Below, in pieces: positions 24,001 to 40,515 of a DNA stretch of 40,515 nt; positions within the stretch are counted from its first letter, which is position 1, and every line of letters starts with the position of its first letter. This DNA comes from Candidatus Omnitrophota bacterium (lineage in GTDB: Bacteria > Omnitrophota > Gorgyraeia > Gygaellales > Profunditerraquicolaceae), in assembly GCA_026387385.1 (NCBI GenBank), contig JAPLLU010000087.1, forward strand, positions 1 to 40,515, given 5' to 3'. Below the pieces are notes generated by a model. The model did not search any database. It was not told the DNA's origin and saw only the letters and a list, made by a program, of their open reading frames with translations. The translations under genes and the position numbers were made by a program.

Positions 24001-27000
24001 TCAACCCCAGAACCTCAACCTCGACCCTATGCTCTGCCAGTGCCAGAAGAATTCAAGGCAAAAGCAGAAGGAATATTTGGTAAAGATTGGATATCGCAGG
24101 TATTTTCCATAGAGGATTTTGAAACATTAAAGGTAACTCAAGAGATTAAGGAAAGATTCGCTAACCTAGGTATAGACCAGGAAAAATTAAAAGAAATCCT
24201 TCAAGGAATTATAAGCCGTGCGCCTCCTGGGTCTAAATTTGTATTTACCACTAATGAAGAATATTTAAAAGATACTAAAGGAAGAATCCGCGTCATTGCT
24301 TTCAATGCGGCTGAGAACATCTTCTATATCCATCCTTGGTATTTAGAATTATCCGCTAATCCTGCCCTAAAACCCCTGATTGATGACCTCTGGCGCCACG
24401 AATACAGCGAATTTGGAAATAAAGGCCTTTCTCAAGAAGCTGCCCACGCCGCAGCCTGCCAGGCAAGTTATGATTATTTCAAAACCCACCAGAAGGAATT
24501 AGAGCAATTCTTAAAAGCAGTCAAGCAATTTAGCATAGAACTGGATGAAAATTATCTGAGTGTATTGCAAGGCATCCTTGTTTCTTCTAAAGTGATCAGC
24601 GGCAAGAGACAAACCACCACCTCAGCAATTAAGACTGATAATAACTCATCTCTGCTTAACGATGGCGGTATTCCTGTAAAGAGCGAATGTGATAATTTAG
24701 TAGCAAAAATACAGGAGGCATTCTCCGGTATACCGGGGAAATTAGCTAAGGATTTGTTAGAATCTAACCTTGAATTCTGGAAGGAAGTATTCAATAAGCA
24801 CGGCAAGGTTATCTATATCGGAAAATCTAATATCAAACAATTAGAAAAAGATTATCCTAAAACATGGATGACTATCCTGAAGATTTTAAGAGAAAAAATG
24901 CGGGTTACATTTAAAGGCGTCTCTATGCTTGAGCTGCAAAAGATGGCCACTGACTGGCCAAAAATATTACTGTTTATCTTCAAAGACGAAAAAGAATTCG
25001 AGGATATTGAGGCAAAACTGGCTTATGATAGTAAGGGTATTCCATTGGAAAAAGTTAAATTAGAATCAGATATATTAAAAATCCAACAATTTCTCTTAGA
25101 AAATAATTTGGAGGGATTAAAGAGTGTTGTCTCTACTCATAATTATCCCGTAGTTTTAGAAGTGGCTAAGACAATTAAGGCACTCTCTAAACCAGAAATC
25201 CGTAAAATAGCTATGAGATATTATTTTTACAACTGGATAGATGTTCTCAAGACCTTAATGCAGATAAGAGAGATTCAGGAACTAATTGCAAATGGTCAGT
25301 TAGAGCAAATAAAAGTTAAATTCCCGCAGATTGCCTCTGAGGTTATAGAATTAAAGGGGAAAATTAAATCTTTATCTGATACCGACATCTGGGAATTAAT
25401 AACAGAGCATTATTATAGTGCCTGGTTTAAAGTTTTAAAAGATAGAAATCCGCACAAGACAACCTTAGTTGGCGGGAAAGAAAATACCCGGAAAGACCGC
25501 AACACAACTATGCTAACCGATGGCGGCACAAGCAAAAACTCTTTTATGGCAGATACCAAACTCATCCTGGCTGAACTTGATAAATTAATGAAGGATGAGG
25601 TAAATACATTAGTTAAAACTTCCGAAGGATATGATATTAAGATATTTGGCATAAGGGGAGTAGGTGCAATGCTGGTTCCTTCTGAGTTTGGCATTGAATT
25701 CCGGAAAGATAAGGCAGTTCTCTTTATGTCTAAAGAAGTCATTGATTTATTTACATCAATAATACGAAAGAATAGAAAGTTCTTTATGAGTCTCTCCCGG
25801 GAAACTAGATTAGGAATCCAGGGGGCAGATGAATTTAAAGGACCTATTTCACCGCTAGTTCATAAAAAACGAGCTATTTTAACACTTATTCGCGAAAGGA
25901 TGGATATTGTTTCAGAGAAGTTACCCGCATATTATCCTATATTCGCCGCTTTAGCCGAAAGGGATCTGCCTATAGTTGAAATTAAAAAGATGCAAGAGTT
26001 AGCCGGTATGAGTTCGACACGGAAGCTTATTTCTTTATATCAACCAGCTAAGTTTACATTTGATTTGCAGGCAGAAGATGTCCCGATGCTTGAGATAGCA
26101 AAGAGGCTGCTTGTGAAATTTGAAGGCGAGGGCGACATAGTATATTCGCTGCAGGCTCACGGATTATGGTTATTAGAAAAATTATATAAAGGCGTAAGGT
26201 ATGAACAGAAACAAAAGGAAACGCATAATTCTATTGAATCCTTTATTGGTGAATATATCCAAAATAACACAAATATCAAAGATGTAGTAGAGGCATTTAA
26301 AGCGCAAGCCGCGTTTAAGAGCCAATCAGCATTCAACGCCCATGTCATTAGTACTCAAAGCATAAATAATAGGGAGTTCATAGACGAATTAATGGAAAGA
26401 TACCCTGAAGAAGCAAAAAGCCTGCAGTGTGCGCTTTATGCGCTCGGATATTCAACACTATGCGATTTGCTTTTAGGGGCTACTTATGAAAGGAATCAGA
26501 AAGAAAGGCATAGGTCTATAGAAGAGTTTATTGTCGAATATGTTCAGCAAATAACAGACATTAAGGACGTAAAGTATGCATTCAAGAAACAATCAGCATA
26601 CGGTGCTTTATCCAAATTTATTACTCACTTTATTAACCTAGAGAAAGTTGATAAGAGAACATTAACAGATGCGTTAATGAAGGAATACCCGAATTTAAGG
26701 AGTTTGCAGTTGGCCCTCAGGTATCTCGGATATACAAGTTTATACAAACTTATTGTTGGCGCGGTATTCGAAGAGAAACAGAAAGATAAAGGAAGATCTA
26801 TCGAGCAGTTCATTAAAAATAAAGAAGGTAAGGATAAGAAGGCTTTAGTAAGAGAGTTAGTTAATGCTTATCCTCAAACATGGAACTTTGAATATGCATT
26901 GCGCTATTTAGGACGATATGACCTAATACACTTTCTCCGAATCTATAAAATTGATAATCATGCCGGAGAATTTATTAATCAAGCACTCGATGGCGGGAGG

Positions 27001-30000
27001 ATACAGAATATTTGGCGTAAGTTCGATGAAGGCTCAGAAGCCATTATTTATGTTGGAACGCCGGGTAAGGTTGAAGCGTACGAAAAGGCCATCAGCTTGC
27101 CTGAGTCTTTGCGAGTGGCAAAACGCGTGCATTGGGGTAAGACTAAAGCAGGATACGCATCATTCTTAAAACACCTCATTTTACGCGTATTGGACGATTA
27201 TTTTGTGCAGAAAGGAACGTATAGTGTAAATCATATTCCTCAGCCGTTGGGGTTCTTTGATACTGGTTATTACTACATTTTTGTTGAAGGAGTAGAAGCG
27301 TTTTCATTGGATAGGATAGATAATGGCTTTAGGAAGTACCCGATTAGGATAAAAGAAGAAAATATTTTTACATACAACTTCGCAGGGTTTGGTTTTAAGT
27401 TATACGTCGATGAGGTTAATACTGAAGATAATATTGCACAAAATATTATTCATGAGGATTGTAAAGATGAAGATTTACTTTCCGAGCACTGGAAAAAGAT
27501 AGATTTTGGTTCTCAGAGTACCGTGTTTAACATAGGCCAGTTCTTAAAAACCCTTGAGGATTACCGCGATTCTCTGCAGGAAATTTTAGGATGGAAATAC
27601 GATTTGGTTAAATTAGCAGGCCAATATCTTAAGGTTCAACATGCAATTAGTGAATCTGTGGTCGATTCTGATAGACAGGAGTTGCATAATTTAGTAAGCA
27701 GATATTTAGATGAAACAGCCGATAAATTAAGAGCAAAGCAGGACGGCGGCAATATAATCCTGCCTCCAAGCACCACTATCCCCAGCCTCAGCGGTTACAA
27801 TAAAGCCAACTTTAAAGGTAAAATCATCTTTATAAGAGTAGATTTCAATGTCTCAGATGAGACCGGCAAGATTAAATCCGTAAAGAGAATACTTGAGGCT
27901 ATGCCTACCCTGGTTTATTTGATGGAGGCAGGTGCTACCATAGTCCTGGCCTCACACAATGGCAGGCCTTCTGGTAAGGTCGTCCCTGAACTCTCCATGG
28001 GCCCGGTAGCGATTAAACTAGCTGAACTCTTAAAGGAAAAAGGATATCAAATAGAGGTAAACTTCTTAAGCCAAAGCATCACCGAGAGCGGTTTAGCCGA
28101 AGGCCTAAAGGAAAAGATCAAGCCAGGAGCGATCAATGTCTTAGAGAACACCCGCTTCTTTAAAGGGGAAGAGAAGAACGACGCAACATTTGCCAGGCAG
28201 CTTGCAGAACTGGTAGATAACCAGATCTTCCTCTTTGATGCCTTTGGTACAGCTGAGCGGGTGCATAGCTCTACCGGTGGAGTAGCTAATTACACTAAAG
28301 AGATCCTCCTGGGCTTCCTGATGGAAAAGGAGTTCAGATATTTACAGGGCGCATTGGATAGCCTCTATGGCCTGATTATAGGCGGCGGCCCCAAGGTCAG
28401 CGAGAAGGTGCCTGTAGTCAAGAACGTCATCAAAAACATTGCCAAAGGCGGCTTCATTGTTATCGGCACCGGCCCAGCTCCGGCCTTCTTAAAGAATCTC
28501 TACAACATAGATCTTGCCCAGAAACCCAGCGATGCTGACTTAAAAGATGCCCAGGAGATAATCACTCTGGCCAAAGAAAAAGAAGTAAGGGTCATCTTAC
28601 CAGAAGATTTTGTCTTAATCGATAAGAGCCTCCTGGATAAGGCGGATGGAGAAAAGAACTATATCGACCTCAAGAAACTCCCCGCAGGCGCAAAAATATA
28701 TCGCTTAACCCTGGAACAACTGAAAACCGGCAAGTTCATTGATGATACTGCTACAGAAGTCTTAGTCAGCAGCCTCTACATCTATGATATAGGTAAGCAA
28801 AGCGAGGTCTCCTTAAAAGAAATCATCCTCAATACCCCAGCAACTCACGCCGTCTTCTACAACGGAAATGTGGGAGTAGAGGAGCTCTTGGAATTTAGCC
28901 CTGGCTCAAAGGCTATTGCCCAGGCCTTGGCAGAGGCCACCGCAAAAGGAATAATCACAGTCATAGGTGGAGGAGACACCACCAAGTCCGCAGAGAAGAA
29001 CAAGGTTGATACCAAGGTCACCCACTGTTCTACCGGCGGCGGCGCCTCAGCTGCCTTCTTAAAAGGCGAACAGCTGGCAGTGGTAAAAGAATTAGAGCGG
29101 ATCATCAGCGAGAGAAAATCCGCTCCCGCCAAACTCTTATGCGACGGCGGCAATATAATTCTACCTCTAAGCACCACTACCCTCATACTCAGCGCTTACA
29201 ATAAAGACAACGAAGGTAAAGAGACTTTGAGTAATATAGAAAAATGCTCCTTACTCAAGAATAAGTTTTTTGACGGTGATGATGCTAAAATTCTCGCTGC
29301 CTTCATTCAGTGGTTGAAGGAATATAGAGCAAAATTAAACCAGCGGCTTTCCTACGAGGTATTATTGGATAAAGAATACCTCATGGTAACTGATGAAAAA
29401 GGCAATTATTCAGGCGCAATCAGGCCAAGAGAACTTTGCCACATAGACGGAACCTGGCATAGGTCAGTGTTTGTTTTCGTTATAGATAAAGAGGGCAAGA
29501 TATTACGGCAACAGCGTTCTTTCAAAAAGGAATTATATCCCGGAGCCTATGACATTTCTGTAGGAGCGCACATCTGTTGTTTTGATGCGGATTCACGCTC
29601 AGCAGCAGCAAGAGAGTTGCTGGAAGAACTTTTCTCGGGAGAATGTTGGATTGATAAATCACGTTTAGTCCAGATAACGCAAGATGGCGAAATAGTACAT
29701 CAAATGGTCTATGCTTCGGATAGGCAGAATAATGAGCGCGCCACAGTATTCGTTTTTCATATCCAAGAAGAAGAAAAAAATAAAATTAAGTATCAGGAAG
29801 AAGAAGTTTTGGCTTCCGGGTGCAAGTGGGTTGATCTTGAAAGTGAAAGGATTGAATTTGAGAAACATCCTGAGCTGTATGCAGGCGCTTTCCAGAGAAT
29901 GTTTACAGAAAATGGTAGTAGCGATTTGCATTTAAGGGTAATGTCCCGCTTAAATAAAATAATTGATTTGATAAAACAGGGCGGGGTTGAGCAGATAGGA

Positions 30001-33000
30001 GAATTGGATATAGACAAAGATAGAGTGAATATTGGAAAAGTTGAGGGAAAACTTGATGGCGGTAAGGAGGAATTTAAGCAGCTGGCAGATATTATTGCTG
30101 AGAGGTTAACGGCCGACATTAAAATTGATAATGACAACTACATACGGCTAGAAGAATTAGTGGGCGGAGAGCTGACAGCGGAATCAATTGATTTTTCTCC
30201 TGCTAAGGAATGGCTTATCTACCCAACATATGATGATAAAGTAATCATATATGAAACTGTAGGTAAGAGAGTTTTAACGGAACAGGAGCTGGATCAGGTA
30301 ATTAAGATGTTAACAGGCATGAACCTAAAGACAACCATTGTTCTCGTAGAAAAGGACAAGAAAACAATAGTTATAGATTTAGATTTTGCCACAATCGAAC
30401 GTTATGCTAAAGCCTTAAATCTCTTAGCCGCACAGCTTGATGAACGCTTGGTAGAAGCCATTGACAACATACACGATATTCCTTATCGGGATGGCAGTAT
30501 CATCAAAATGAAATTAATGAAACTGCCATTTAGGAATTTTAAATTTCCTGATGAGCTAATTAATTTCTTGGTTAGATTTTTTAAAGTAAGGACAGCTACA
30601 TCGCCGTTATCCAAAAAATCCCTTGATTGGCTGATAGATCAATACATGCAAAAAGAAAATTATGGCCTAGATGTGCAGTCAGTATTAAAAGAGGGCAAGA
30701 AAGAATGTCAGAAGAAGTTAGCTGCTATAGAGGAATCAAAAGCAATAGCTGCTGATCCGCATTTAATGCCGGAACAAAAGGTCGGACAATTAGGTGTGGG
30801 TATTATCTATAGTGAAGAAGAAACAAACAAAGAGCTGGATATTATAGATTATCTTTTCGAGATGTTCCTCCCAGAGAAAACATTGCTTACGTTAAAGGCC
30901 TTAAGTAAATTGCAAGAAGAAAGAAATATCGTTGAATCGGTCAGAGGAGATCAATATTACTTAGATTTTAATTGCGGTATCAAAGCCATTAACGAGATAT
31001 GCGAGCATAAACCACTATTGAGTGAAGTGGAGATAGTAGATGGAAAAGGCACAAGATTAGATATTGAGGAACCCGATGAGAAAGTATTAGAAAAATTACT
31101 CGAGCAACATAAAAAAGAGATAATGTATGACTTATTAGAACAAAGTTATCCTGTTAAATTCTTAATTTCTCTTAAGAATTTCAATACAGGTGAGAAATTC
31201 TATGGTGCATATTATGAAGGGCATATTGATGAGGAAGGCAATATCTGGATTGAAGAAGTTAATTTCTTGATGTTAGGAAGAGGTCTGTTTAAAGCCATAA
31301 GTGCACTCATCTCTAAATACCTTAAACAGCTCCCACATAATATTAAGGTTAAGCTGTACATTTGGGAATTGAATTCTCTCATTGAGCTGGCAGAGAGCTG
31401 TATTAATTTTACAGATACCTGTGAGGAAAAAATTAAAGAAAGGTTGTCAAATCAAGAATGCAAGGAAGCGCTGTATAATTTACGTAGCAATATACCTTTA
31501 TGTAAAGAAATCAGAGACAGTCAGCTTGCATTCGGCTTTGGCTCAGAGCGCAGAGAGTGCATTTTAACCATGTTAGATAACCTGTATGAACTTCTGTTGG
31601 CTTGCGAGAAATCGCCATGTGACCCTGATAAAACATTATGGGGGCATATCTACATAGACTATATGAATTTATTCAATGTAGAAATAAAAGCAGTTAAGGA
31701 TGAACATGGGCAGAAGTCATTGCTATTAGTTGGTGATACAAATCCGGGCAGGTCTCTTGAGGGATTAGAATCCATAGGGCCAGAACATATAAATCCGAAG
31801 CCAGAAGAAGCGTTTGACGGAGGCAAGAAAGAGAAGGCCAAGCAAGTAAATAAATCCCAGAAAAACGATGGCGGAAATATTAAGCCTGCTAATATTGAGG
31901 TCGATGATTTAATAGATGAACTGAAAAACAAAGGAAAAATTAAGATTCGCGCCAATGACGGAGTAGAGTTTGAGTTTAGATTAAGAATCTTATGGGATGG
32001 TATGTACACTATAGAAGTTTACAAGGGAAGGGATAATATAGGTCGCGTTGACTTTGAGCTGGGAGGCATAGGTTATAGTAGTTTTGAACGCGCTCTCTCG
32101 GATAATGAACCTATAAAAGTTACAGAGAAAAATTATAAAGGTATAGGCAGGGCTTTAGTTTCGTTAGCACTTGGCCTATCAAGAGAAGAAGGTTTAAAAT
32201 GCTTTATTGCGTGGATGTCAGTAGCAGATTCATTTTGGTTAGGTTTAGGTTTTGAAAGAATAGGTGATTCATCTAATTTTAAATTCGACCTGATAAACAA
32301 AATCATACCTCCTATAGAGATAGTCGCAGAGAATACCATCTATCCCATTCCTGTCCTCCGTGGCCGGTGGGAAGAGGCAACTGTTTTCTCCCCGCGAGGC
32401 TTAAACTCTAACCAGGTCTTTTCTTTTGTCTCCGATGAGAAAACGCTTACAGACGGTGGAAGGCAATATTCTCAAGAAACGCCTCAGGAGAAATATGCAA
32501 GAATTACACATAATTTGGATAAATTAAAAGATGATGGAATTTTAATATTAAAGTTAAGAAGAACCGTTAAGCCATATAGGCTAGATATCTACTCTGCTGT
32601 ATATCTGCCGATTAATATAGCTATTTATTATAAAAATAAATCTCTCTTGGATGTTGCAAAGATAGTAATAGAAGTAGAATCTGATGGATACAATCGCCCC
32701 GTTTACTTTAGAGAAGTACCTGCCGAGAATATTTCAATACTTAATGTTGCTTTAAGCAGAGAAGTAAAGTTTGATAGTTTAGCATTACAAAATATTTCTT
32801 ATGTTGAGAAAAATAGTAGATTTGATATTGCGTTCAGTAAAGATTTCTTGCAGTCCTTCGAAGCTCTTGGAATACCAAAATATTATGCATTTAAATATGG
32901 CTCTTGCAGATTTGTTGCTCAGCCTGAAGCAGAACAAAAATTATTACTTGATGGTGGTCAAAAAGATAAAACTGCAGTTATTGCTTTAGGCGGTAATGCC

Positions 33001-36000
33001 TTCTTTAAGGAGATAGGTGGAGAGCCATATAATAAACAGTTAGAGAATCTCTCCCAGATGCTTGAGCCTGTAGTAGGGCTCATCAAGAATGATTACCAGG
33101 TAGTGATAACCCATGGTAACGGACCTCAGGTGGGAGATAGAATGCTGGAGAACGAGCGGTTTGTTGAGGAGAAAGGTAATGTTAAACGCCTGCCTCTTGA
33201 TGCACTTGTGGCTGAGACTCAGGGTGCAATGGGGTATATGATAGAGATGGCCTTACAGAGGTTGCTTATAAAGGAAGGCCTTCAGCGAACTACCGCTACT
33301 GTGCTTACTCAAGTAGTCGTGGATAAAAATGACCCAGCCTTTAATAATCCGACAAAGCCAGTTGGCCCCTATTATTCCCAAGGGCAGGCGGAAAAATTAA
33401 TAAAAGAAAGAGCCTGGAAAATGGTAGAAGTCCTGAACCGAGGCTGGAGAAGATTAGTCCCATCGCCAGCTCCAAAAGAAATCGCCAGCCTTAGCGTGAT
33501 TGAGAGGTTATTAAGAGACAATTGCGTTGTTATTGCCTGTGGTGGCGGCGGCATACCGGTTTATAAAACAGAAGGGAAGTCTCAAGAGGGAGTAGAAGCA
33601 GTAATTGATAAGGATCGGGCCTCCAGTTTACTTGCAGTTAAACTCAACGCCGATAAATTTATCATTTTAACTGAGGTAGCCGGCGTTTACTTAAATTTCG
33701 GTAAAGAAAATCAGCAAGCACTTAATGAAATAAGTATCGCCCAAGCAGAAAAATATTTGTCTGAAGGCCATTTCCCAACAGGCAGCATGGGACCTAAAAT
33801 TGAATCTGCCATTGCCTTTGTCAAAGCTACCGGCAATAAAGCTATTATTGCAAACGAGAAGAGTATTCAAGACGGATCATATACTTCAATTGTAGAACAA
33901 TTCAGTCAAACTAGACTCATGGCGGATGGAGGCAATAGCCAGCAGACAAAACTTTCTTCTGTGATTGAAGAACTCAAGTCCAGCTCTAAGTTCGTGCGTC
34001 AAACGGCATTATCCTTTGTTAAAGAATATATTCTTAAAGACAGACCGCAAATCCACCGATATCCCGAAGAGAAATATTATGAATTGATTGAAATGCTCAA
34101 TAGTCTGATTGAAGACGAACGGATCAATACCAACAATATTCTCTTAGCTAATCAAGTGAGTGAGTTCTATGATTGGTTGATAGATATATTCGTCCAAAAA
34201 GAAGATTTCATTACGGTCATCGCAGATAACAAGTCAACTTTTGATAAGGAAAAATCCAGATTAATTGAGAGCCATATTTCAGGCTTCAATCTTTCCTTCC
34301 AACAGGGATTAATAAAAGAGGCGTTTAATTCCAAGATGGTTATCATCTCTAATGAAAAAGGAAAATATTCTTCAGAAAGCATAGCTAAATTTGTAAGAAA
34401 AGCTCCTAAGGACATTTTGATAGTTATCCATCAAGGGGCCAGTTTTGACGACAACTATATTCCGTTTATTAAAGGTACGCAGAAAATTATTATCCTGAGC
34501 ACATTTCCGCAAGGGCTTAAGCTGGCAGGAGAGCCTTTAGCTTATTCTATTTCCAGGAAAGATATTAGGGAACTTCTGCTTAAAGTTAAGAACCCTTTCA
34601 ATATAAATATTATTGATCTTTTAGTTGCGTTACACGTTATTGCAGAGTGCGTCACAGAGCCTATTAAGGAGGCAAAAGCCAAATTTATAGTTGAGGAGGA
34701 TGCTTATCAGATAGAATTACGCTCTATGATAAGAGCGGCTATCCAGAATCCCGGGCTTCAACCCTATATCCCTGGCAAGGGACCAAAAGAAATTTGGACT
34801 GAATTAAATGAGCTGTATCCTAGGAAATACAAACCTGAAGATATCGGCAAACTATCCTCTAATGAAAATCCAGAGATTCTTCCCTTAAAGGCAAGAAAGG
34901 CTTTAGTAGGGTTATTGCTGTCTGCGATGCAAGGAAAACCTTTTGATTACCAGAGAGAATTACAAAAAACCAAGGAGATTATCTCCCGGCAGTTAGGTAT
35001 TGAAGACAGACAGATTTTCTTAGGCAACGGCGCATCCGAGGCAGTGGGAAGAATTATCTCTGCCTTAGCTAAGGAAGGAGACACTATAGTTTTCCCTGAG
35101 AAGACATTTACGCTATATCCTTTAGTAGCAATGGCTCAAGGGTTGAATATGATTATGGTCAAAAACAAGATGAATCTTGAAGAGGGATATATTGATACTG
35201 ATTTTGAAGGCCTTTTGAAAGCAGTTAGCAATAATAAACCGCGATTATTAATATTAGTCAATCCCCGCAATCCCCTCGGGTTGGTAATCACTAGAAAAGA
35301 ACTGAATAGCTTTATTTCCCAAGTTAAAGCAGCCTCACCGAGTACTATAATTATCATTGATGAGGCGTATTATGAATTTGCAAAATATCAAGCAGGGCAA
35401 GAAGGCTGGGAATACCCAAAGACCATACGAGACTATATTAGAAAGAATGATAAAAACATTATTGTAATCCGGAGCTTCTCAAAAATATTAGGCCTTGCAG
35501 GTATGCGCGCGGGTTATGCCATAGCGCACGCCGATATTATTAAGAAACTCGAGAGAATAAAACGATCCTACAATGTTAACGCCTGGGCCTTGCCCCTGAT
35601 TAGAGAAGGCATAAGACAAAAGGCCTGGATTAAAGAGCAGTGTAAAAGCAACTATGAGAATAGGCAGTATCTTTTAGAGAACCTTAAAAATCATCCTCAG
35701 CTCGATTACATTAGAAAAAAGAGAACCTCAGGTAATTTCTTATGTCTATGGGTAAAATCCGGCTATGATGTTAAGGAAGTTATGAATAAAATTAAAAAAG
35801 AGGGCCTGATTATCCGTCCTGTTGGGGAGCGGTTTATTCGGGTAAGCCTGGGTGGGACCTGGCAGCAACTGGGCAGATTAGTTGCTTCTGAGTCGGATTT
35901 AATTCTGGTGGTAACCCATGACAAGCCAAAACGCAAAACCCATAAAAATATATCTTTACTTTTGGACAGTCATGATGTGTTCATCAACAAATTTATTATT

Positions 36001-39000
36001 ACTAATTGTTATTATCCAGGAGAAGAAATAGTATTTGGTGTAGAAAAGAAAGATGTCAAACCTACAGAATTCCAGTCATATTGTTTACTTAATAGAAGCG
36101 GAATAGTTCTGGTTGGTGAATACTTAGAATGCTGTATATTCACCGCCTTTAAGACTTGTGTGACACAAAAATTAAAGCATCACTTGAAAGCAAAGGTTAA
36201 TATTATTAGGGATGCCACTACGATGCGCCTGGAGGAGTATAAGGATAAAGACAAAACCGTCCCCGTTGTTAAGCGCTTACCGGTTGCGGCAGAATATCCC
36301 TACCGCACGGAAAATGAATTTAACACCTTCCTGAGAGAATTTCACATAGAGCATCCCGATATCAGAAAAGAACCCATAAGCTTTGAAGTTCTTATTGATG
36401 GCTATCCATTTTTTAGAGAAGGTAAAGGAGAGCCCGAGATCAGGCTGCACTGGATTTCAAGTACCGATAAATTCTTAAGGCAGCGCAGAAATAAAATTGG
36501 TTCAGCGGAAGCGGATAATATTCAATTTGATGGAGGCAGTAGCGCTGGATTATTAACAGAAGACGGCCGATTAAAATCCGATGTCTTAGAATATGTTTAC
36601 AATATCGATAAGCTTATTAACTTCGTCCACGATAAATCCGCTTTTAGTGAAGATCAGTTGCGTATGGAAATACGGAAGTATTGTAAACAGGCAATGAGCG
36701 AGAGATTTGTTAGGGCCTATAGAAAGGGTAAGATTATAGTTATGGTACCTGATCTGTCAGACCTTGACTTCATGGGGCTGGGCGATTACTTGGCATACAG
36801 TGGATTAATGAAAAAAGATGCTGAATATGTCCAGAATCATGAAGAGGAGATTGAAGAAATCCTCAAGTCTGGTACGCGAATATTGACTTTTAGAGCAAGA
36901 GATAAACAGGAAATACAGGCATCGCAATCGTTAAGAGATACAGAGATTATACCCCACAGACAGGCCTATGCAGGGTTATTTGCTGCTACTTTTGGCAAAG
37001 GCCTCGATCGTAACGCAACCTTAAATTTAGGTTATGAAGGATTTGATAAAGAGGCTTTGGGCTTGAAAGATATGCAGATGAAATTATACGATAATGCCAA
37101 CATGAGGTTAAAACAATTTATAAACTATATAGCAAGTAAGGATTTGATTAAGATTGAAGGCATGACTGAAGATGGCCAGCCTATTAGATTATATATATCC
37201 AGATCAGATTCTAAATCAGAAATATTTGCTTATCTCTTCAGGTTACAATTTAAGGTTTCCCAGGATTTCACTAAAGACAAAAAACCAATTATCCTTTTCT
37301 TTGCTCCAGAGTTGACGAACAATGCCTCAAGATACCTTTTCTTAGACCAGGGCGTTGGTTTCTGCTACGGGAAGGATTATTACGGAGAGATTACCGATAG
37401 TATTAAAATTTTAGCTCAACATAGGAACAAAGAAGCAGACATAGGTCAAGTGAGTTCCCATATAGAAGATTACTATAGCTTAGCGATTAACAGAGATTAC
37501 TTTGTTGATGACGATGGTTTGTTCCATCTGGAAGGAAAACAGTGGCCACTTATCGGAGCATTAGATTTTGACTTCCATCCGTATCTGGGAGATAAAGTTC
37601 TGACGCCGCAAGATAAGCTACATTATTCGCTAAATAAGGTTTTGGGTAATTTGGAACACTTCGCATCCAGGTGTGACGATTATACCCAGAAAACAATGAC
37701 TGAACTCAAAAGTATTGTTAAAAAATACTCGACACAAGTAATGAGCGAGGAATTTATTAGGGTAGCAAGAGAGGGTAGATACGTTGTGCTCTACAAAGAT
37801 CAACTTAGTTTTGATCGGGTTAAGGATTATATAAGGCTAGAAAAATTTGTATTAATGAAGGCTCGCGATATACAGAACAATGAAGATAGGGTATTAAAGA
37901 TATTATCTGAGGATAAGATAATTATATTAGATTGTAAGGCTAAGTTTTCGCCTGAAAATTTTGTACCGTTTACACGCCAAAAGGCCTATGCAGGAATCAT
38001 GGTTCCTTCAAACAGGAAATCTCGAGACAAAGAGCATACCATACATTTACCTTCCAATTTTACATTTGAAGATTATCTTAATCATCCTACTAAAAAGATG
38101 CTCTATTCTGAGGCGGACACAAGAATTAAAGAATTCACCAAATACATCCTCACCAAGGACCTTGTTAAGATTGAAGGTAGCCTGGGCGGGATTTTCCCGA
38201 TAAGACTTTATATCTCTAAGGCTGACCCCAGAGCTGAGAGATATGCCTATTTCTTCCGTTCGCAGTTTAGGGCACCGCTTGAAAAATTACCTAAAGGCAT
38301 GATGATGATGCAGCCATTAACGTTAGTTTTTGCACCCGAATACAAGACTAACGAGGCTTCCAAATATATGTTTTTGGAACAGGGACTGGGTTTGTGCTGG
38401 GGCATGGATTATGGCGGTGAGATCAAGAAAGGTTTCTTGACTATGGGTAATTACGAAGCGCGTAAGCTTGATTGGTTAGGTTTACACGCTGGCTTAAGGA
38501 TGGTTACCTTAAGACATAAAGTCACAGGAGAGATTCTAAGGTTAACACAGGTATTCTTTGGCTTATCCGGCTCGGGTAAGACTACCTACTCAACGAGTGA
38601 ATTAGGATTAAATGAGGCATTAAGAAAACAGTATTCTGATTGGGAAATCGTTGTTGACGAAACCGGACTGGTCAATGACGACATGCTCTATTTAGTAACG
38701 AAAGATACAGAATTCAATGGCAAACTATATAAGAAAGGCCAGATTGTCGGAACAGAAACCAATGTTTTTGCTATTATCTCTAAGCTTAAACAGAAACAGC
38801 AGCCTGAGGTTTGGGATGCAACCTTTAATAATTACTTCTGCTATCTGGAGAATGTGGACTACACAATTGGCTCAGATGGTTTATATACTGTCAATGTGAT
38901 GAATGATATTCCTTCCGGTAACATGCGCGTAACAGCGGTAAGAGACGCTATAAACACAAAAGCCCAAAAATCATTACCCTTGGAGACTCCATCATTTGAG

Positions 39001-40515
39001 GAAAAAGCTAGAATTCAATTTATATTTTTATCGCCAATGATTAACAATTACATACAAGACCCATGGATGGATGGATTACCTATTCAAAAGCTTACTCCTG
39101 GACAGGCAGCCCTTGCTTTGATTGCCGGCATATCTGTGAAAACTCCTGCCTCAACCCACATTGTAGAAAACTGGGGTAAGTCAGCTATTTCACGCTTCTT
39201 CAATCCATTTACACATGGAGACCCAGTACTATACGTCTCAGATTTTTACAACTTCCTACAGGAAAACCCTGATAGAGTCAGTGCCTGGATAGTCAACACC
39301 CGCGCAGGGCAAAAAATGAATGAAGATGGTTCTTTCGATTCAGCCCACAGAATTCATATCCCCCAGAGCGTGCGAAACGTCTTACACGCCACATTGGAAG
39401 GTTTAGGTTTAGAAAAATTAAACTATAGGCAACACCCAGTGATGAGAACGCTCATTCCCGAAATCAAAGATAATGATTTAAGCGGGCTTAAAATAGGCGA
39501 ATTCAGCCAAGAAGAGAGATGGCGTTCTCCCGATGATTTCCGAAAAAGAATTATTGTCTACGCCAAGAAGAATTTCCCTGGATTGCCAATAGAGGTACTT
39601 AATGCCTTTGGAAAGGAAGAACAAGAGGAAAAGAATGATGGTGGAAGAGTAGGTTACGGGTCTCAGGCCGCAGGCTACAGGTATCAAGAAGATGTTCGAT
39701 ACGATGGCGGTATCCCAATTGAAAAACTCATTGCCCACAGAATAGAAAGTAAAGAGCAGTTAGAAGACGCCGTCAAAAACGGTATAGAGAGAGTAGAAAT
39801 TGATGTGCAGCTAACCAAGGATAATGAGTTAGTAGCTTTCTGGGGAAAATTAAAAGACGGGTTTGTTTATGATTATACATCGCAAGAATTAGAAAAAATG
39901 TTAGAAAAAAATTTACTCAATTTAGAAAGGGCTTTCAAAGTTGGCAAGGAAGAAAATCTTAAGTTCAATTTGGATATTAAAGATTGGGCCTCTGAAAAAT
40001 ATATTGAATATGAAGAAAAAGTGCTGGATAAAATTAAAGAATTGATAGAAAAATATAATCTTCAAAATCAAGTATCAGCGGATTCATTCAATTGGGGTTA
40101 TCTGGGAAGATTAAAGCAGCTAGCCTCTTACGTAAACACATACTTGGGCACTGAAAAGGAATTCAAGGATTTAGAAGTGATAATTAAAGAAGCAAAGAGG
40201 ATGAATGCTTCTGGTGTATGGATTTATTCTGAAAATTTGTCCCTCGAGCTCACAAAGAGATTACATCGAGAAAATTTAAAAATAATCACTAATTTTGAAG
40301 GCCTAAGGGAGGAATTTAAAGCAGAAGTAGATTTAATAGTCAAAAATTTTGTTAACGAGAGAGAATCCGCTCCCGCCAGGCTCTTACCTGACGGCGGCAA
40401 TATAATCCTACCTCCAAGCACCACTATCCCCAGCCTCAGCGGTTACAATAAAGCCAACTTTAAAGGTAAAATCATCTTTATAAGAGTAGATTTCAATGTC
40501 TCAGATGAGACCGGC
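1..40515 (+). CDS. Giant multidomain membrane-anchored protein, partial at both ends (at least 13,505 aa, frame +1)
   Basis: Frame +1 reads RVTESPLTPAEESEMLAYFA... through ...RVDFNVSDETG with no stop found in line-by-line translation. The ORF track has no frame +1 ORF despite an ATG at 43, as expected if the frame never terminates. About 20 recognisable domains all lie in this frame. Confidence 0.96.
16..243 (+). repeat. Two copies of a 39-aa (117-bp) coding repeat, probably continuing upstream
   Basis: PLTPAEESEMLAYFAAHPELQPGDIFTLSTGRIVRIV (from 16) vs PLTSEEESEMIAYFAAHPELRPGDVFILSTGRIVHVV (from 133). Confidence 0.92.
262..492 (+). repeat. 11 x 21-bp tandem repeat encoding the heptapeptide I-x-L-[QK]-P-[DE]-T
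   Basis: IILQPET IVLQPET IVLQPDT IILKPDT IELKPDT IILQPDT IMLKPET IEIKPDT IIARADT IVAKADT IKANADT. Confidence 0.95.
1201..2148 (+). other. Domain: clan GH-A TIM-barrel glycoside hydrolase (GH2-TIM/GH158-like)
   Basis: IRGVTY, GINTVRTY, HPAILMWEFGNE (acid/base Glu at 1570), KPVYLSETGAD (nucleophile Glu at 1828), WQDEWWK, NEEYWG. Confidence 0.85.
4393..4455 (+). other. Transmembrane helix followed by a basic stop-transfer segment
   Basis: WLLVVGMTVATVGFFAGLILL then GKRAEKKARD. Confidence 0.8.
4720..8690 (+). other. Domain: FKS1/callose synthase-like 1,3-beta-glucan synthase (GT48) with FKS1_dom1-like region and two TM clusters
   Basis: Collinear FKS/CalS-like motifs: AKEFRFSNPSVIWY, TFEDVEDRF, KTYSD, TM cluster (~5480-5900), ERIQRFIGAWYMRMP..LPSLTAIITCFDE, GKTIGQNAGVEYARGDIVLFFDSN..FEEAIRIPAVLAEF, FYGH, SEDLLG, HREYILFGKGRE, TM cluster (~7560-8620), LMPVFGHP..FLNWL. 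Confidence 0.88.
8971..10104 (+). other. Domain: GT4 (GT-B) glycosyltransferase
   Basis: SGGVETY, WHGG, NRIHQYKG, CDIVVLPTYAEGLPLVLLEA (EX7E at 9817-9843), ETGVLV, MGKAGRQ. Confidence 0.93.
10594..11190 (+). other. Domain: protein-kinase-like fold (1)
   Basis: IGEGIEFVVY (Gly loop), VVK, GLWMMDNSVFKNYG (catalytic loop-like), FMDLG (DFG-like). Confidence 0.65.
11260..13250 (+). other. pgi: Domain: glucose-6-phosphate isomerase-like with an extra C-terminal SIS-like domain
   Basis: GIGG (11467), SKSGSTDET, VGGRW, EQNFNES, QPYVELGK (12631), GTGDQH (12961). Confidence 0.82.
13531..15720 (+). other. Domain: alpha-D-phosphohexomutase (phosphoglucomutase/phosphomannomutase-like)
   Basis: FSTAGIR, TSSH (phospho-Ser loop, 13999), DPDSDR (metal loop, 14560), VGFK, EESGG, FRPSGTDPLKSKIY. 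Confidence 0.9.
16066..16940 (+). other. Domain: UPF0489-like (arginase/deacetylase-fold) putative metallohydrolase
   Basis: PVLISENH, LVNFDLHSD, EIYWVVP, ISIDADYY, ITFSFS, GYLP. Confidence 0.65.
17014..18480 (+). other. prs: Domain: ribose-phosphate pyrophosphokinase with a duplicated N-terminal domain
   Basis: RFPDGEWYLRI, YSRQDKKFKEGEGVSA, LNIH, GPDDGA, DKVR, IIDDETSTGGT, VHG. Confidence 0.88.
18529..19614 (+). repeat. 81-bp direct repeat pair (18529-18609 and 19534-19614) starting two TM+HEAT modules
   Basis: NQSNKFYSFFPFTFLSVGSIPVISDII vs NQSTKFYSFLPLAFLSAGSIPVISDII, clearly similar at the DNA level. Confidence 0.88.
18730..19404 (+). repeat. About 7 PBS-lyase-type HEAT repeats (31-33 aa)
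   Basis: Consensus VRxxAAxALGELGDSRAVEPLIERLxD with near-identical DNA units; about 2 more diverged units at ~20090-20300. Confidence 0.93.
20536..21290 (+). other. Domain: class II nucleotidyltransferase (CCA-adding/poly(A) polymerase-like)
   Basis: LVIGGAVRSIFFDENVYDFDI, LEVD, LEDLLQGRI, ILRLLRL, GLEIDPQT. Confidence 0.75.
21343..21840 (+). other. Domain: zincin-like module 1 (HExxE ... H)
   Basis: AHVGRERNSIYI beta-strands, KILVHESVE (21724), EDAHKVALE (His at 21802). Confidence 0.5.
21961..23970 (+). other. Domain: fucose-1-phosphate guanylyltransferase-like sugar-phosphate nucleotidyltransferase
   Basis: LPDP..VRGNG, LHGGGQSSRNP..GK, YGDALITF, WGT, FVEKP, DTFGDLV, WLDTG, TARIFP, RLFS; no GHMP kinase domain follows. 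Confidence 0.72.
24100..24570 (+). other. Domain: zincin-like module 2 (HExxE ... H)
   Basis: RAPP, IAFNAAENIFYIHP, LWRHEYSE (24397), EAAHAAA (His at 24445). Confidence 0.5.
26191..26930 (+). repeat. About three copies of an unrecognised ~95-aa helical repeat (third internally shortened)
   Basis: Units start at 26191, 26476 and 26758: GxxYExxQKExxxSIExFI...L(M/V)xxYP...L/F(Q/E)xALxxLG. Confidence 0.8.
27001..27735 (+). other. Domain: protein-kinase-like fold (2)
   Basis: FDEGSEAIIY, VAKR, HIPQPLG, YYYIFVEG, AQNII, KIDFG. Confidence 0.65.
27742..27867 (+). repeat. 126-bp direct repeat (DGG linker + PGK start), copy A
   Basis: Matches 40390-40515 except for one synonymous change (ctg/cta); a diverged partial copy starts at 29143. 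Confidence 0.95.
27808..29100 (+). other. pgk: Domain: phosphoglycerate kinase
   Basis: RVDFNV, SHNGRP, LENTRF, DAFGTAER.H, GFLMEKE, IIGGGPKVSEK, DIG, YNGNVGVEE, GGGDT, HCSTGGGAS. Confidence 0.95.
29110..29205 (+). repeat. Linker cassette copy B (ERKSAPAKLLCDGGNIILPLSTT...YNK)
   Basis: DNA similar to 40357-40452 (ERESAPARLLPDGGNIILPPSTT...YNK) and, from DGG onward, to 27742. Confidence 0.9.
29371..29910 (+). other. Domain: Nudix hydrolase / type 1 IPP-isomerase-like
   Basis: RELCHIDGTWHRSVFVFV, QQRSFKKELYPGAYDISVGAH, AAARELLEEL, YQEEEV. Confidence 0.88.
31969..32310 (+). other. Domain: GNAT acetyltransferase-like
   Basis: IGRVDF, YKGIGRALV (acetyl-CoA motif A), ADSFWLGLGF. Confidence 0.7.
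32965..33897 (+). other. arcC: Domain: carbamate kinase
   Basis: VIALGGNA, THGNGPQVG, ETQGAMGY, DPAFNNPTKPVGP, GWRRLVPSP, GGGGIPV, EAVIDKD, GSMGPK. Confidence 0.96.
33991..34645 (+). other. Domain: degenerate HisC-like large domain lacking the PLP lysine
   Basis: IHRYP, NILLAN, IVIHQGA (in place of IIDEAY), STFPQGLKLAGEPLAY (in place of RSFSKxxGLAGxRxGY), NPFNIN. Confidence 0.72.
34726..35886 (+). other. hisC: Domain: histidinol-phosphate aminotransferase-like (fold I PLP enzyme)
   Basis: PYIPGK, KLSSNENP, GNGASE, NPRNPLG, DEAYYEF, RSFSKILGLAGMRAGY (Lys at 35482), SGNFL, IRVSLG. Confidence 0.92.
35893..36480 (+). other. Domain: isochorismatase/cysteine-hydrolase-like (divergent)
   Basis: IVLVGEYLECCIFTA and VNIIRDAT resemble the catalytic-Cys segment of this fold. 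Confidence 0.45.
36580..37560 (+). other. Domain: degenerate duplicate of the PEPCK N-terminal lobe
   Basis: Parallels 37640-38450 (QAYAG/KAYAG, KDLIKIEG/KDLVKIEG, PIRLYIS, FAPE, FLDQG/FLEQG) but has DYYGEITDS in place of DYGGEIKKG and no P-loop. Confidence 0.82.
37642..39612 (+). other. pckA: Domain: ATP-dependent phosphoenolpyruvate carboxykinase
   Basis: KSRD, YGGEIKKG, LHAG, FFGLSGSGKTT, VNDD, GTE, LENV, GNMR, FFNPF, VNT. Confidence 0.9.
39724..40350 (+). other. Domain: glycerophosphodiester phosphodiesterase-like
   Basis: LIAHR, VEIDVQLTKDNELV, NLDIK, SFN, VDLIV. Confidence 0.8.
40357..40515 (+). repeat. Linker cassette copy C + start of a second PGK domain, truncated by the window end
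   Basis: ERESAPARLLPDGGNIILPPSTTIPSLSGYNKANFKGKIIFIRVDFNVSDETG; 40390-40515 matches 27742-27867 bar one base. Confidence 0.93.

Follow-up and report, generated by a model that had tools for sequence, protein, structure and literature searches.

Double-glycine leaders, which occupy single N-terminal sites, are hydrophobic at positions -4, -7 and -12, with an acidic side chain at -8. Viral polyproteins are processed at short repeated sites, such as LXGG (coronavirus papain-like protease) and GG-X (adenovirus and asfarvirus proteases). MARTX and large clostridial toxins release effector arrays at linker sites by means of an internal cysteine protease domain; the site in these toxins is essentially a single Leu in the linker, cut by a C80 domain. 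The enzyme that processes nematode cuticle collagens of the SQT-3 kind is an astacin metzincin. In nematode cuticle collagens resembling SQT-3, a 'DGG motif' is described at putative C-terminal processing sites in the accessible part of the source. As for the proteins of 30,000-85,000 residues in Omnitrophota, the accessible part of the preprint by West-Roberts et al. 2023 treats it as an open question whether these act whole or are cut; cleavage is suspected there and the cleavage points are given as unknown. The punctuation motifs described below are unmentioned in the accessible parts of this preprint, of Seymour et al. 2023 and of a 2026 complete-genome preprint, and no cleavage points or linker motifs for these giant proteins were found reported in the searchable literature.

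The DNA analyzed here, a stretch of 40,515 nt from an Omnitrophota bacterium (the window), is a single stop-free ORF of 13,505 codons in frame +1 that runs off the stretch at either end. Its TM-like-segment-rich part (Table 1) contains glucan-synthase/GT2, GT4, PRPP-synthetase, HEAT and fucose-pyrophosphorylase domains (Pfam), and a crude Kyte-Doolittle scan gave 20 hydrophobic segments in the window. The giant-gene contigs of this genome encode PGK, PFK, iPGM, GH and GT domains, SecA_DEAD (on contig C110) and, among their units, DNA-binding HTH units and response regulators. We infer that these contigs are pieces of one gene, the link from contig C33 to contig C116 being backed by synteny in the related genome G044. 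An N-terminal C39 domain, TM segments, a SecA-like domain, glycolytic and carbohydrate domains and an Omnitrophota host, the features that define 'Archaeovorin'-type giant ORFs, are all found here, and the likeness to the ORFs of this type in the accessible part of West-Roberts et al. 2023 extends to a C39 domain near a signal peptide, TM-like segments, and SecA-like, glycolytic and carbohydrate-active domains. Omnitrophota or Omnitrophica account for 59 of the 80 related loci.

The tripeptide Asp-Gly-Gly (DGG) recurs in this gene, and each of the systems above resembles it in part. All 91 DGG sites in three genomes have the Gly-Gly core of the C39-cut double-glycine leaders (LahT, ComA, PCAT1), and, as in the PCAT/AMS systems, a genuine C39 domain, its Cys and His invariant, stands at the N-terminus of the giant gene. 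Unlike double-glycine leaders, the DGG sites are internal and repeated, with an invariant Asp at -3 and genome-dependent flanks: in this genome L or F occupies position -4 at 16 of the 34 sites, R, K, N and T predominate at -7 and -8 shows no acidic preference, and in G044 position -4 is K or R in 26 of 39. Nor do C39 peptidase and DGG go together across lineages. The analogy to double-glycine leaders drawn in an earlier note on this DNA thus holds for the Gly-Gly core and for a genuine C39 in the same gene, but not for the canonical leader context. With viral polyproteins the giant ORFs share a short, strict and lineage-dependent motif that recurs at whole-protein boundaries in one huge ORF, together with short spacers between double sites, but the host is bacterial and the cargo is dozens of metabolic enzymes and regulators. 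With MARTX and large clostridial toxins they share an array of enzyme modules, unstructured linkers and a very large bacterial protein with a cysteine protease domain; the modules, unlike those of the toxins, are of housekeeping type (PGK, PFK, iPGM, carbamate kinase) and include no recognized toxins. For the SQT-3-type collagens DGG itself has been put forward as a site of proteolytic processing, in the accessible part of that source, although there it is eukaryotic, extracellular and present once per protein; this parallel suggests that metzincin cleavage just before Asp would be chemically plausible. A metzincin-type M54 domain occurs in the giant gene of this genome and was not found in the other DGG-type genomes.

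DGG punctuates linkers between complete enzyme units

Exactly the 15 DGG motifs listed in the earlier note are present in the window, all of them in frame and beyond residue 8220; residues 1-8220 have none, as the note had observed, versus 2.0 expected. The comparison with composition which the note had proposed reveals a strong enrichment, with 15 versus 1.23 expected in residues 8221-13505 (Poisson 5.5e-12), a mean of 1.22 and a maximum of 6 in 5000 shuffles of this region, and DGG as its most enriched tripeptide (runner-up P = 3e-4). Two other giant-ORF contigs of the genome are also rich in DGG (C7, 10 versus 1.17 expected; C116, 6 versus 0.98). Among 1294 ordinary ORFs of the genome it is not enriched (58 versus 83 expected). 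An avoidance test, in which ordinary ORFs had 47 DGG with an O/E of 0.62, and 0.55-0.70 for NGG, KGG and EGG, showed no specific avoidance. The motif is strict, as the near-variants DNG, NGG, EGG, DSG and DAG all occur at chance in the genome. The codons vary in the window, with GAT (10) and GAC (5) for Asp, GGC (9), GGA (3) and GGT (3) for the first Gly, and GGC (7), GGT (4), GGA (3) and GGG (1) for the second. This rules out a nucleotide-level signal at the sites and implies selection on the peptide, the conclusion that the note had drawn. Over the 91 sites of three genomes, the residue following Gly-Gly is never Pro (0 versus 3.3 expected, P = 0.034) and seldom hydrophobic (15 versus 32.5, P = 4e-5), and the median DGG spacing is 348 aa.

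Table 1. Coordinates of the giant-gene fragment, its domains and its DGG sites in the window.
Feature	Position (nt)	Strand	Residues (aa)	Remarks
Contig-filling ORF	1..40515	+		Giant multi-enzyme gene fragment, Omnitrophota bacterium
TM-like-segment-rich part	4396..23130	+	1466-7710	DGG absent
DGG site 1	24661..24669	+	8221	SSLLN-DGG-IPVK; first site, opens zone without TM-like segments
DGG site 2	25519..25527	+	8507	TTMLT-DGG-TSKN
DGG site 3	26989..26997	+	8997	INQAL-DGG-RIQN
DGG site 4	27742..27750	+	9248	PGK 18 aa downstream; then repeated linker NIILPPSTTIPS
Phosphoglycerate kinase unit	27802..29070	+	9268-9690	Pfam PGK; DGG 18 aa before, 25 aa after
DGG site 5	29143..29151	+	9715	SAPAKLLC-DGG-NIILPLSTT; 25 aa past PGK
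NUDIX domain	29458..29847	+	9820-9949	DGG 103 aa before, 70 aa after
DGG site 6	30055..30063	+	10019	70 aa past NUDIX
DGG site 7	31816..31824	+	10606	Double site, first member, 17 aa apart
DGG site 8	31867..31875	+	10623	Second member of site 7/8 pair
DGG site 9	32452..32460	+	10818	
DGG site 10	32950..32958	+	10984	Precedes carbamate kinase unit
Carbamate-kinase-type AA_kinase unit	32968..33855	+	10990-11285	DGG 4 aa before, 24 aa after
DGG site 11	33925..33933	+	11309	TRLMA-DGG-NSQQ; after carbamate kinase unit
Class I/II aminotransferase domain	34849..35886	+	11617-11962	Within 868-aa DGG-to-DGG unit
DGG site 12	36529..36537	+	12177	
PEPCK_ATP domain	38350..39462	+	12784-13154	Partial profile match; DGG 605 aa before, 59 aa after
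DGG site 13	39637..39645	+	13213	59 aa past PEPCK; double site, first member, 22 aa apart
DGG site 14	39703..39711	+	13235	GDPD 15 aa downstream
GDPD domain	39754..40284	+	13252-13428	DGG 15 aa before, 36 aa after
DGG site 15	40390..40398	+	13464	36 aa past GDPD

The sites avoid domains and fall between them. All 31 DGG in the three DGG zones of the genome fall outside the Pfam envelopes (29.8% coverage; P = 1.8e-5), in agreement with the note, and 14 of the 17 gaps between consecutive domains contain DGG, against a random mean of 7.9 and with 14 reached in none of 20,000 randomizations; the proposed test against predicted domain boundaries thus came out positive. The three gaps lacking DGG are HisKA-HATPase_c, HTH-Zn ribbon and TrmB-wHTH, of which the first is normally a single protein and the other two are plausibly one protein each. 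The domain bracketing described in the note was recovered for PGK, NUDIX, carbamate kinase, PEPCK and GDPD, but its 'kinase 2' (aa 8221-9248) and 'GNAT' (aa 10626-10983) had no Pfam match even at E <= 1, and its list omitted the aminotransferase.

Comparison to free-standing enzymes places the sites close to native termini. When mapped on the window, 29 free-standing carbamate kinases have their initiator Met about 3-4 residues past site 10 and their C-termini about 6 residues upstream of site 11. The PGK of the window is an extra copy, as the genome has its own 393-aa PGK on contig C99, which aligns to the window unit over residues 10-384; PGK, PFK and aminotransferase units, the three of 25 units which had a testable paralogue, cover these paralogues almost end to end. 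The DGG-to-DGG units are complete proteins; DGG typically precedes the native N-terminus of the following enzyme by a few to about 20 residues and trails the end of the one before by about 6-80. DGG is a peptide-level-selected punctuation that lies only in the inter-unit linkers of the TM-free multi-enzyme arrays of this giant gene. From site 15 to the contig end the DNA almost repeats positions 27742-27870, i.e. the linker and the start of the PGK unit, and homologues of the NUDIX module are present in other giant ORFs. The punctuation is incomplete: C96 ORF1 (Rpi, GNAT) is without DGG, about 4,000 aa with several enzymes between residue 1042 of C33 and residue 2829 of C116 contain none, and in the fragment P0117 NUDIX, starch synthase and HEAT domains succeed each other with no intervening DGG.

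Motif types and candidate proteases in related genomes

At least two related Omnitrophota genomes are of DGG type. G044 has 39 DGG versus 5.1 expected, of which none falls within a domain envelope (random mean 9.1), the occupancy of inter-domain gaps being 14 of 22 and not significant (P = 0.11). G045 has 18 versus 2.4 in total (13 versus 1.8 and 5 versus 0.6), and a HAD domain begins directly next to one of its DGG. The iPGM units of this genome and G044 are 63% identical and have DGG at both flanks, at non-aligned positions, and in the linker after GDE the DGG is kept in both genomes with a shift of about 9 columns. The linker comparison across homologues suggested in the earlier note thus gives a motif that is retained in orthologous linkers while its position moves; two of the G044 sites lack an equivalent in this genome. 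The position before DGG (P4) is L, T, F or N in this genome and K or R in G044 and G045. Other Omnitrophota carry other motifs, namely SSP (69 versus 6.1 in G011), DNG (34 versus 3.5 in G034) and DNGG (15 versus 0.64 in G010). Lineages differ in having DGG, DNG/DNGG, SSP[L/V/I] or none, and the motif is a genome-wide trait, the same one occurring in every giant-ORF piece of a genome. A strict motif was not found in the related giants of G008 and seven library fragments, including P0010, which has no DGG excess and is presumed to be the sole available fragment of G042, as it gives an identical module match and its ORF is within one residue in length; five relatives at family level that carry the same C39 domain show no DGG excess either. 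Genomes vary greatly in module content, which implies that modules are gained and lost. In the search for close relatives of the window that would allow site conservation to be followed, protein searches gave only one and two distant matches, a metagenome scan yielded 34 loci, all of them stand-alone carbamate kinases and most no more than 49% identical, a first scan of genome contigs gave no match, and the last 2900 aa of the window matched only stand-alone aminotransferases in G041-G045.

The C39 domain (PF03412, 37 bits) lies within the giant ORF at C75:14095-14490, at aa 219-350 and after a hydrophobic N-terminal segment. All 10 sequences compared retain its Cys25 and His114, and the predicted model (pLDDT 85.6; best PDB match 6mpz, E 2.8e-7, TM 0.72 on target) is closest in fold to LahT150, PCAT1 and ComA. 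A conserved double-glycine-like site is situated directly downstream of the domain in 11 of 11 aligned giants and fits the leader pattern. The presence of this leader-like site suggests a simpler role for C39, that of N-terminal self-processing. As an apparent signal peptide (by eye) precedes the domain, C39 may also be located across the membrane from the cytoplasm-type enzymes. A complex prediction of C39 (residues 1-160 of alignment A1) with a 40-aa DGG linker scored 0.01, a value that weighs neither way on C39 as the reader. Giants of DGG, DNGG, SSP, RAPP and no-motif type have N-terminal C39 domains that resemble one another (ten and eleven domains in two comparisons), and a function of C39 as the DGG reader is unsupported. 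A closer clade (this genome and G041-G045) has in common a Gln before the C39 Cys and a true GG at the downstream site. The members of this clade include G042, the fragment of which shows no DGG excess.

An M54 archaemetzincin occurs in giant ORFs of three genomes that belong to the D-[G/N]-G type, namely this one, G010 and G034. M54 was rejected as the reader, since G011:C5 has M54 inside an SSP zone (16 versus 2.3), contrary to the D-[G/N]-G prediction; M54 was not found in G041-G045, thus neither in DGG-type G044 nor G045. A CHAT protein (clan CD; about 740 aa), which is conserved and shows no N-terminal hydrophobic segment, is present in 24 of 24 same-family genomes, all with an intact His/Cys dyad, as well as in 33 of 41 relatives and four of five closer genomes. 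Its similarity is not grouped by motif type, and it was not found in the SSP-type G031 (96% complete). The CHAT protease is a candidate only for the DGG reader. Ulp-like C48 and caspase C14 domains had no match in the genome, the one S8 domain is in an ordinary ORF, C80 (PF11713) had no match among general Pfam scans of giant ORFs, and on C75 no evident protease (by eye) is encoded upstream of the giant gene. Among the three families examined, C39, M54 and CHAT, none co-varies with motif type.

Cleavage and other readings of the DGG punctuation

The best explanation of these data, to which we give an even chance, is that DGG is a cleavage signal. An endopeptidase would recognize a short linear site with DGG at its core and so divide the giant precursor, a bacterial polyprotein, into its separate enzymes and regulators. 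The scissile bond could be situated after Gly-Gly, in the ubiquitin-like or double-glycine style, or before Asp, in the metzincin style. The putative protease may be the in-cis N-terminal C39 Cys/His peptidase, the CHAT protein or an unrecognized enzyme; that C39 does the cutting is doubtful and takes a small share of the total probability. Of the cleavage or recognition site proposed in the note, a boundary signal on protein-sized units with native termini stands, but none of the three protease families examined co-varies with it and some boundaries lack DGG. The evidence for selection and boundaries suits any trans-acting reader equally, and the absence of a co-varying protease also agrees with a non-proteolytic factor that would read DGG for docking, chaperoning, sorting, translocation or per-unit modification of a giant protein that stays intact; the SecA-like domains and many glycosyltransferases of the giant gene could act on linkers. 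However, no candidate for such a reader was found, and sites a few residues from native termini, delimiting whole proteins such as HTH units and response regulators, are what a release of the units would call for. The two double sites of the window (DGG pairs 17 and 22 aa apart) are also easier to understand as spacer peptides. A non-proteolytic reader is thus unlikely, if still worth keeping in sight. We regard as improbable that DGG is a passive structural element, i.e. a flexible hinge, turn or domain cap whose lineage forms arose by drift and linker copying. D, G, N, S and P are residues commonly met in linkers and turns, the punctuation is incomplete and absent in some lineages, and three window linkers (27742, 29143 and 40390) have long near-identical DNA, meaning that linkers do get copied. 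Yet a passive hinge should tolerate the near-equivalents that are at chance here, most sites have varied codons and no common flanking sequence, the motif is kept at shifted positions in orthologous linkers that are about 55-63% identical, and one tripeptide recurs in three genomes amid different flanks.

The ribosome forms peptide bonds poorly with Asp, Gly and Pro, and DGG, DNG and SSP are all made of residues slow in peptidyl transfer. This would fit a programmed translational slow-down that lets each enzyme fold before the next, as would the many sites 16-36 aa past the upstream domain end, near the length of the ribosomal exit tunnel. The native C-terminus of carbamate kinase is, however, only about 6 aa before DGG, so that the pause would come with this domain still inside the tunnel; ribosome chemistry is universal and a different strict tripeptide in each lineage is therefore not expected, and the varied codons speak against a rare-codon pause, all of which makes a slow-down very unlikely. 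That units match whole genes end to end and that modules come and go between genomes would also be expected if DGG were a functionless relic, either a gene-fusion scar (an intergenic or Shine-Dalgarno sequence read as Gly-Gly) or a joint of cassette recombination, and GGAGG is indeed found in 8 of 10 C7 sites. It occurs at only 3 of the 15 window sites, though, where all four Gly codons are used and no in-frame former start codon was found after the sites. Moreover, decay would be expected of a functionless scar, but the tripeptide stays invariant amid diverging flanks and reappears at shifted linker positions, and a Shine-Dalgarno relic leaves the SSP-type lineages inexplicable; an origin as a relic is accordingly highly improbable.

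Returning to cleavage, the DGG sites are the first concrete candidate cut positions for giant multi-enzyme proteins, and a strict, lineage-specific motif at native enzyme ends makes the question of intact versus cut proteins directly testable. The motif predicts the exact termini to seek in existing metaproteomes and splits the giant proteins into units fit for structure prediction, and its type is a trait that can be correlated with gene content in order to find the reader. With somewhat less than even confidence, the giant ORFs of Omnitrophota may be true bacterial polyproteins, each lineage having its own tripeptide punctuation at which a dedicated, unrecognized protease cuts. To our knowledge, polyprotein expression at this scale would be without precedent in cellular organisms. 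If true, the motif supplies a map of the cleavage points, and a gene of 100 kb or more would be expressed like the genome of an RNA virus, releasing dozens of proteins.

The giant gene and its pieces

The genome to which the window belongs (G000; 1.57 Mb in 149 contigs, 39.7% G+C, completeness 98%) fills contig C45, the window itself, with a single open frame of 13,505 codons which is closed at neither end. A crude hydropathy scan found 20 hydrophobic segments in the N-terminal ~8,000 aa of this frame and none in the C-terminal 5,285 aa. In architecture the gene agrees with the 'Archaeovorin' giant genes as described in the available text of West-Roberts et al. 2023. When the conserved N-terminal region was used as a query, 80 loci were retained, 59 of them labelled Omnitrophota or Omnitrophica.

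Coordinates and domain content of the giant gene, its pieces and candidate reader proteins
Feature	Location	Content
N-terminal part of window ORF	~8,000 aa	glycoside hydrolase, glucan-synthase/GT2, GT4, PRPP-synthetase, HEAT-repeat, fucose-pyrophosphorylase (Pfam)
C-terminal part of window ORF	5,285 aa	PGK, NUDIX, carbamate-kinase-type AA_kinase, class I/II aminotransferase, PEPCK, GDPD (Pfam)
Similar giant frames filling other G000 contigs	C7 (7,572 aa), C116 (5,390 aa), C33, C110, C96	
Giant-ORF start	C75	hydrophobic N-terminal segment, then sole C39 peptidase domain of G000
Conserved site ~25 residues past C39	C75:14095-14640 (L062), and 10 other giant N-termini (11/11 aligned)	[D/E]-[A/T]-K-x-[I/V]-[L/M/W]-G-[G/A/S]
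Peptidase_M54 (archaemetzincin)	C7 aa 4795-4907 (L059)	at end of C7 DGG zone
CHAT protein (clan CD, caspase-like), ~740 aa	C108:7-831	single-copy, intact His/Cys dyad, without N-terminal hydrophobic segment

PGK, PFK and the aminotransferase all have stand-alone paralogues in G000, and the giant gene therefore duplicates core metabolic enzymes and does not replace them. Its PGK (window aa 9251-9717) is a second, diverged copy, with 36% identity to the PGK on contig C99 (BLASTP). The last ~125 nt of the window (40390-40515) nearly repeat 27742-27870, which comprises a linker and the start of the PGK unit, and the linkers at 40390 and 29143 also match each other in their upstream halves. A second PGK-like unit probably begins at 40390, and it is probably this repeat that broke the assembly. 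Contig C33 (L064) ends, and C116 (L061) begins, within a starch-synthase unit (GT5 then GT1). Since their homologues are continuous in the closer relative G044, where the counterpart of C33 1046-2198 passes directly into that of C116 1-409 (contig C152, aa 14981-16530), these contigs are neighbouring pieces of one gene. Directly upstream of the giant gene, C75:5300-13421 holds a tandem run of six small genes whose N-termini resemble Flp pilins (KGQNIAEY), followed by larger membrane proteins and a ~285-aa pair, and by eye it looks like a Tad/Flp pilus locus.

DGG between the enzyme units

An earlier note had counted 15 copies of the tripeptide Asp-Gly-Gly (DGG) in the frame and seen none in its first part. 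The number and the positions are exact, all copies are in-frame and there are none before residue 8221. In the C-terminal 5,285 aa DGG is by a wide margin the top-enriched tripeptide, with 15 copies against 1.23 expected from composition (Poisson 5.5e-12), and the highest count in 5,000 shuffles was 6. Codons for Asp and Gly both vary, as the note had also claimed, and the constraint thus lies on the peptide. DGG is similarly enriched on C7 (10 vs 1.17) and C116 (6 vs 0.98). The ordinary ORFs of G000 (1,294) show neither enrichment (58 vs 83) nor specific avoidance. DGG alone is used, as DNG, NGG, EGG, DSG and DAG are all at chance. A wider context, roughly [R/K]-[L/I]-[M/L/A]-[L/T/F/N]-D-G-G-[polar], is common to 34 sites, a few of which may be chance copies since ~7 are expected over these 35,002 residues. 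A separate large protein, the 3,328-aa ORF of C38, contains 10 DGG and 20 NGG in 'KLEYSTDGGxTYP' and 'xPDGGExW' repeats, which look like structural Asp-box/BNR-type elements unrelated to the linker motif.

The suggestion that DGG lies outside domains and at their boundaries held when computed. In the three DGG zones of G000 all 31 sites fall outside the Pfam envelopes, which cover 29.8% (P = 1.8e-5), and 14 of the 17 gaps between consecutive domains are occupied (random mean 7.9; 14 reached in none of 20,000 randomisations). The 'kinase 2' and 'GNAT' units named in the note found no Pfam support. DGG-free gaps separate HisKA from HATPase_c, a pair normally within one protein, and HTH from Zn ribbon and TrmB from wHTH, each plausibly one protein as well. 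The units between DGG sites are whole proteins. For carbamate kinase, the initiator Met of 29 complete free-standing homologues maps 3-4 residues past DGG 10984, and their C-termini map ~6 residues ahead of DGG 11309. Among paralogues in G000, by which 3 of 25 units were testable, residues 10-384 of the 393-aa PGK on C99 align inside the window PGK unit, and those of PFK and the aminotransferase are also covered near end to end. Across three genomes the median DGG-to-DGG spacing is 348 aa, with 9 of 82 spacings below 60 aa.

Motifs in related giants

An exhaustive HMMER search with window residues 9715-10900 was followed by examination of the 37 proteins of at least 800 aa among the best 150. 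Two are enriched in DGG (P0117, 13 vs 1.8; P0007, 5 vs 0.6) and several in SSP; seven of nine further-screened fragments lack any strict motif. The lengths of P0117 and P0007 are those of open frames in the closer relative G045, where a HAD domain has a DGG abutting its first residue and the C39 region is 45% identical to that of G000. DGG again ranks first among tripeptides in the 18,307-aa frame of G044 (39 vs 5.1, P = 1e-21), with most copies reading [K/R]DGG, so that the motif recurs in three genomes with different flanks. None of these 39 copies lies within a Pfam envelope (random mean 9.1), and gap occupancy (14 of 22) is not significant (P = 0.11). In both G000 and G044 the iPGM unit (63% identity between the two) has DGG on either side, at different alignment columns; past the GDE unit DGG is kept but shifted by ~9 columns, and two G044 sites have no G000 counterpart. 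Short linear motifs under functional selection typically behave in this way, being retained while their positions turn over.

Five same-family giants with a C39 domain (30,624 to 68,606 aa) show no DGG enrichment (5 vs 18, 10 vs 13, 13 vs 17, 4 vs 8.5, 4 vs 7), and parallel strict motifs occur among the relatives instead. SSP enrichment, mostly of [A/S/T]SSP[L/V/I], is seen in G011 (69 vs 6.1; second ORF 16 vs 2.3), G013 (27 vs 1.6), G023 (19 vs 1.8), G019 (18 vs 3.1), G020 (16 vs 3.0) and G031 (36 vs 7.1). The enriched motif is DNG in G034 (34 vs 3.5; second ORF 7 vs 1.6), DNGG in G010 (15 vs 0.64) and RAPP in G021 (12 vs 0.31), while G008 has no strong motif. Within one genome all giant-ORF pieces share its motif, clustered in long zones with few TM-like segments. 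As RAPP is enriched in G011:C5 (5 vs 0.08) as well as in G021, two or more marks may occur in one genome. In the G011 giants (L049-L053, L085-L087) SSP is often paired 15-18 aa apart, flanking a conserved peptide ('SSP-LGALxCT...-SSP').

Candidate readers and the meaning of DGG

The only region conserved among all giants compared is the N-terminal ~600 residues. In its C39 domain one Cys and one His are invariant, the confidently predicted fold (pLDDT 85.6) is closest to those of the double-glycine proteases LahT150, PCAT1 and ComA, and the form is similar across lineages with differing motifs. The conserved site past it, which fits the canonical double-glycine leader pattern, is probably the domain's own cleavage site. 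With C39 alike across motif types and followed by this site, N-terminal self-processing is its simplest role. M54 likewise occurs within the D-[G/N]-G zones of both G010 and G034 and was not found in the closer genomes G041-G045. It was rejected as the reader when the M54-bearing ORF of G011, predicted to be of D-[G/N]-G type, proved SSP-type. Giant ORFs with an embedded M54 occur in G000, G010, G011 and G034, and three other relatives encode it as a short gene of its own; among control genomes it is mostly archaeal. The CHAT protein is present in 24/24 same-family genomes, 33/41 relatives, 4/5 closer genomes and only 1/14 control genomes, its similarity does not follow motif type, and G031, of SSP type, gave no match. 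Neither C48 nor C14 domains were found in G000.

Cleavage of these giants has already been proposed in print; the marks, as far as the search reached, have not. Among the papers searched, none treats cleavage sites in connection with Omnitrophota or with giant proteins, and 'cleavage site' occurs zero times in the main texts on Omnitrophota giant genes. 'Cleav' and 'polyprotein' are both absent from Seymour et al. 2023, and the available parts of two preprints on these genes mention neither linkers nor DGG. In the accessible portion of the literature searched, 'DGG motif' together with cleavage led only to SQT-3-like nematode collagens.

The enrichment of DGG, its confinement to linkers and its retention with turnover are direct observations; that it is a proteolytic processing site is inferred, and we give this about an even chance. 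Against this count the lack of a co-varying protease among the candidates examined, the DGG-free C96 ORF1, a DGG-free stretch of roughly 4,000 aa from C33 into C116, the unpunctuated NUDIX, starch synthase and HEAT of P0117, and the relatives without any motif. That DGG is instead recognised without proteolysis seems unlikely, and that it is a passive hinge slightly more so; a translational pause is improbable, and a relic of fusion or recombination very improbable. Of the readings, cleavage is the most economical, since native termini are only a few residues away from the sites, and it is supported also by the fact that Pro never follows GG (0 vs 3.3 expected). It is further favoured because DGG separates HTH regulators, response regulators and other units which would be expected to work better free.
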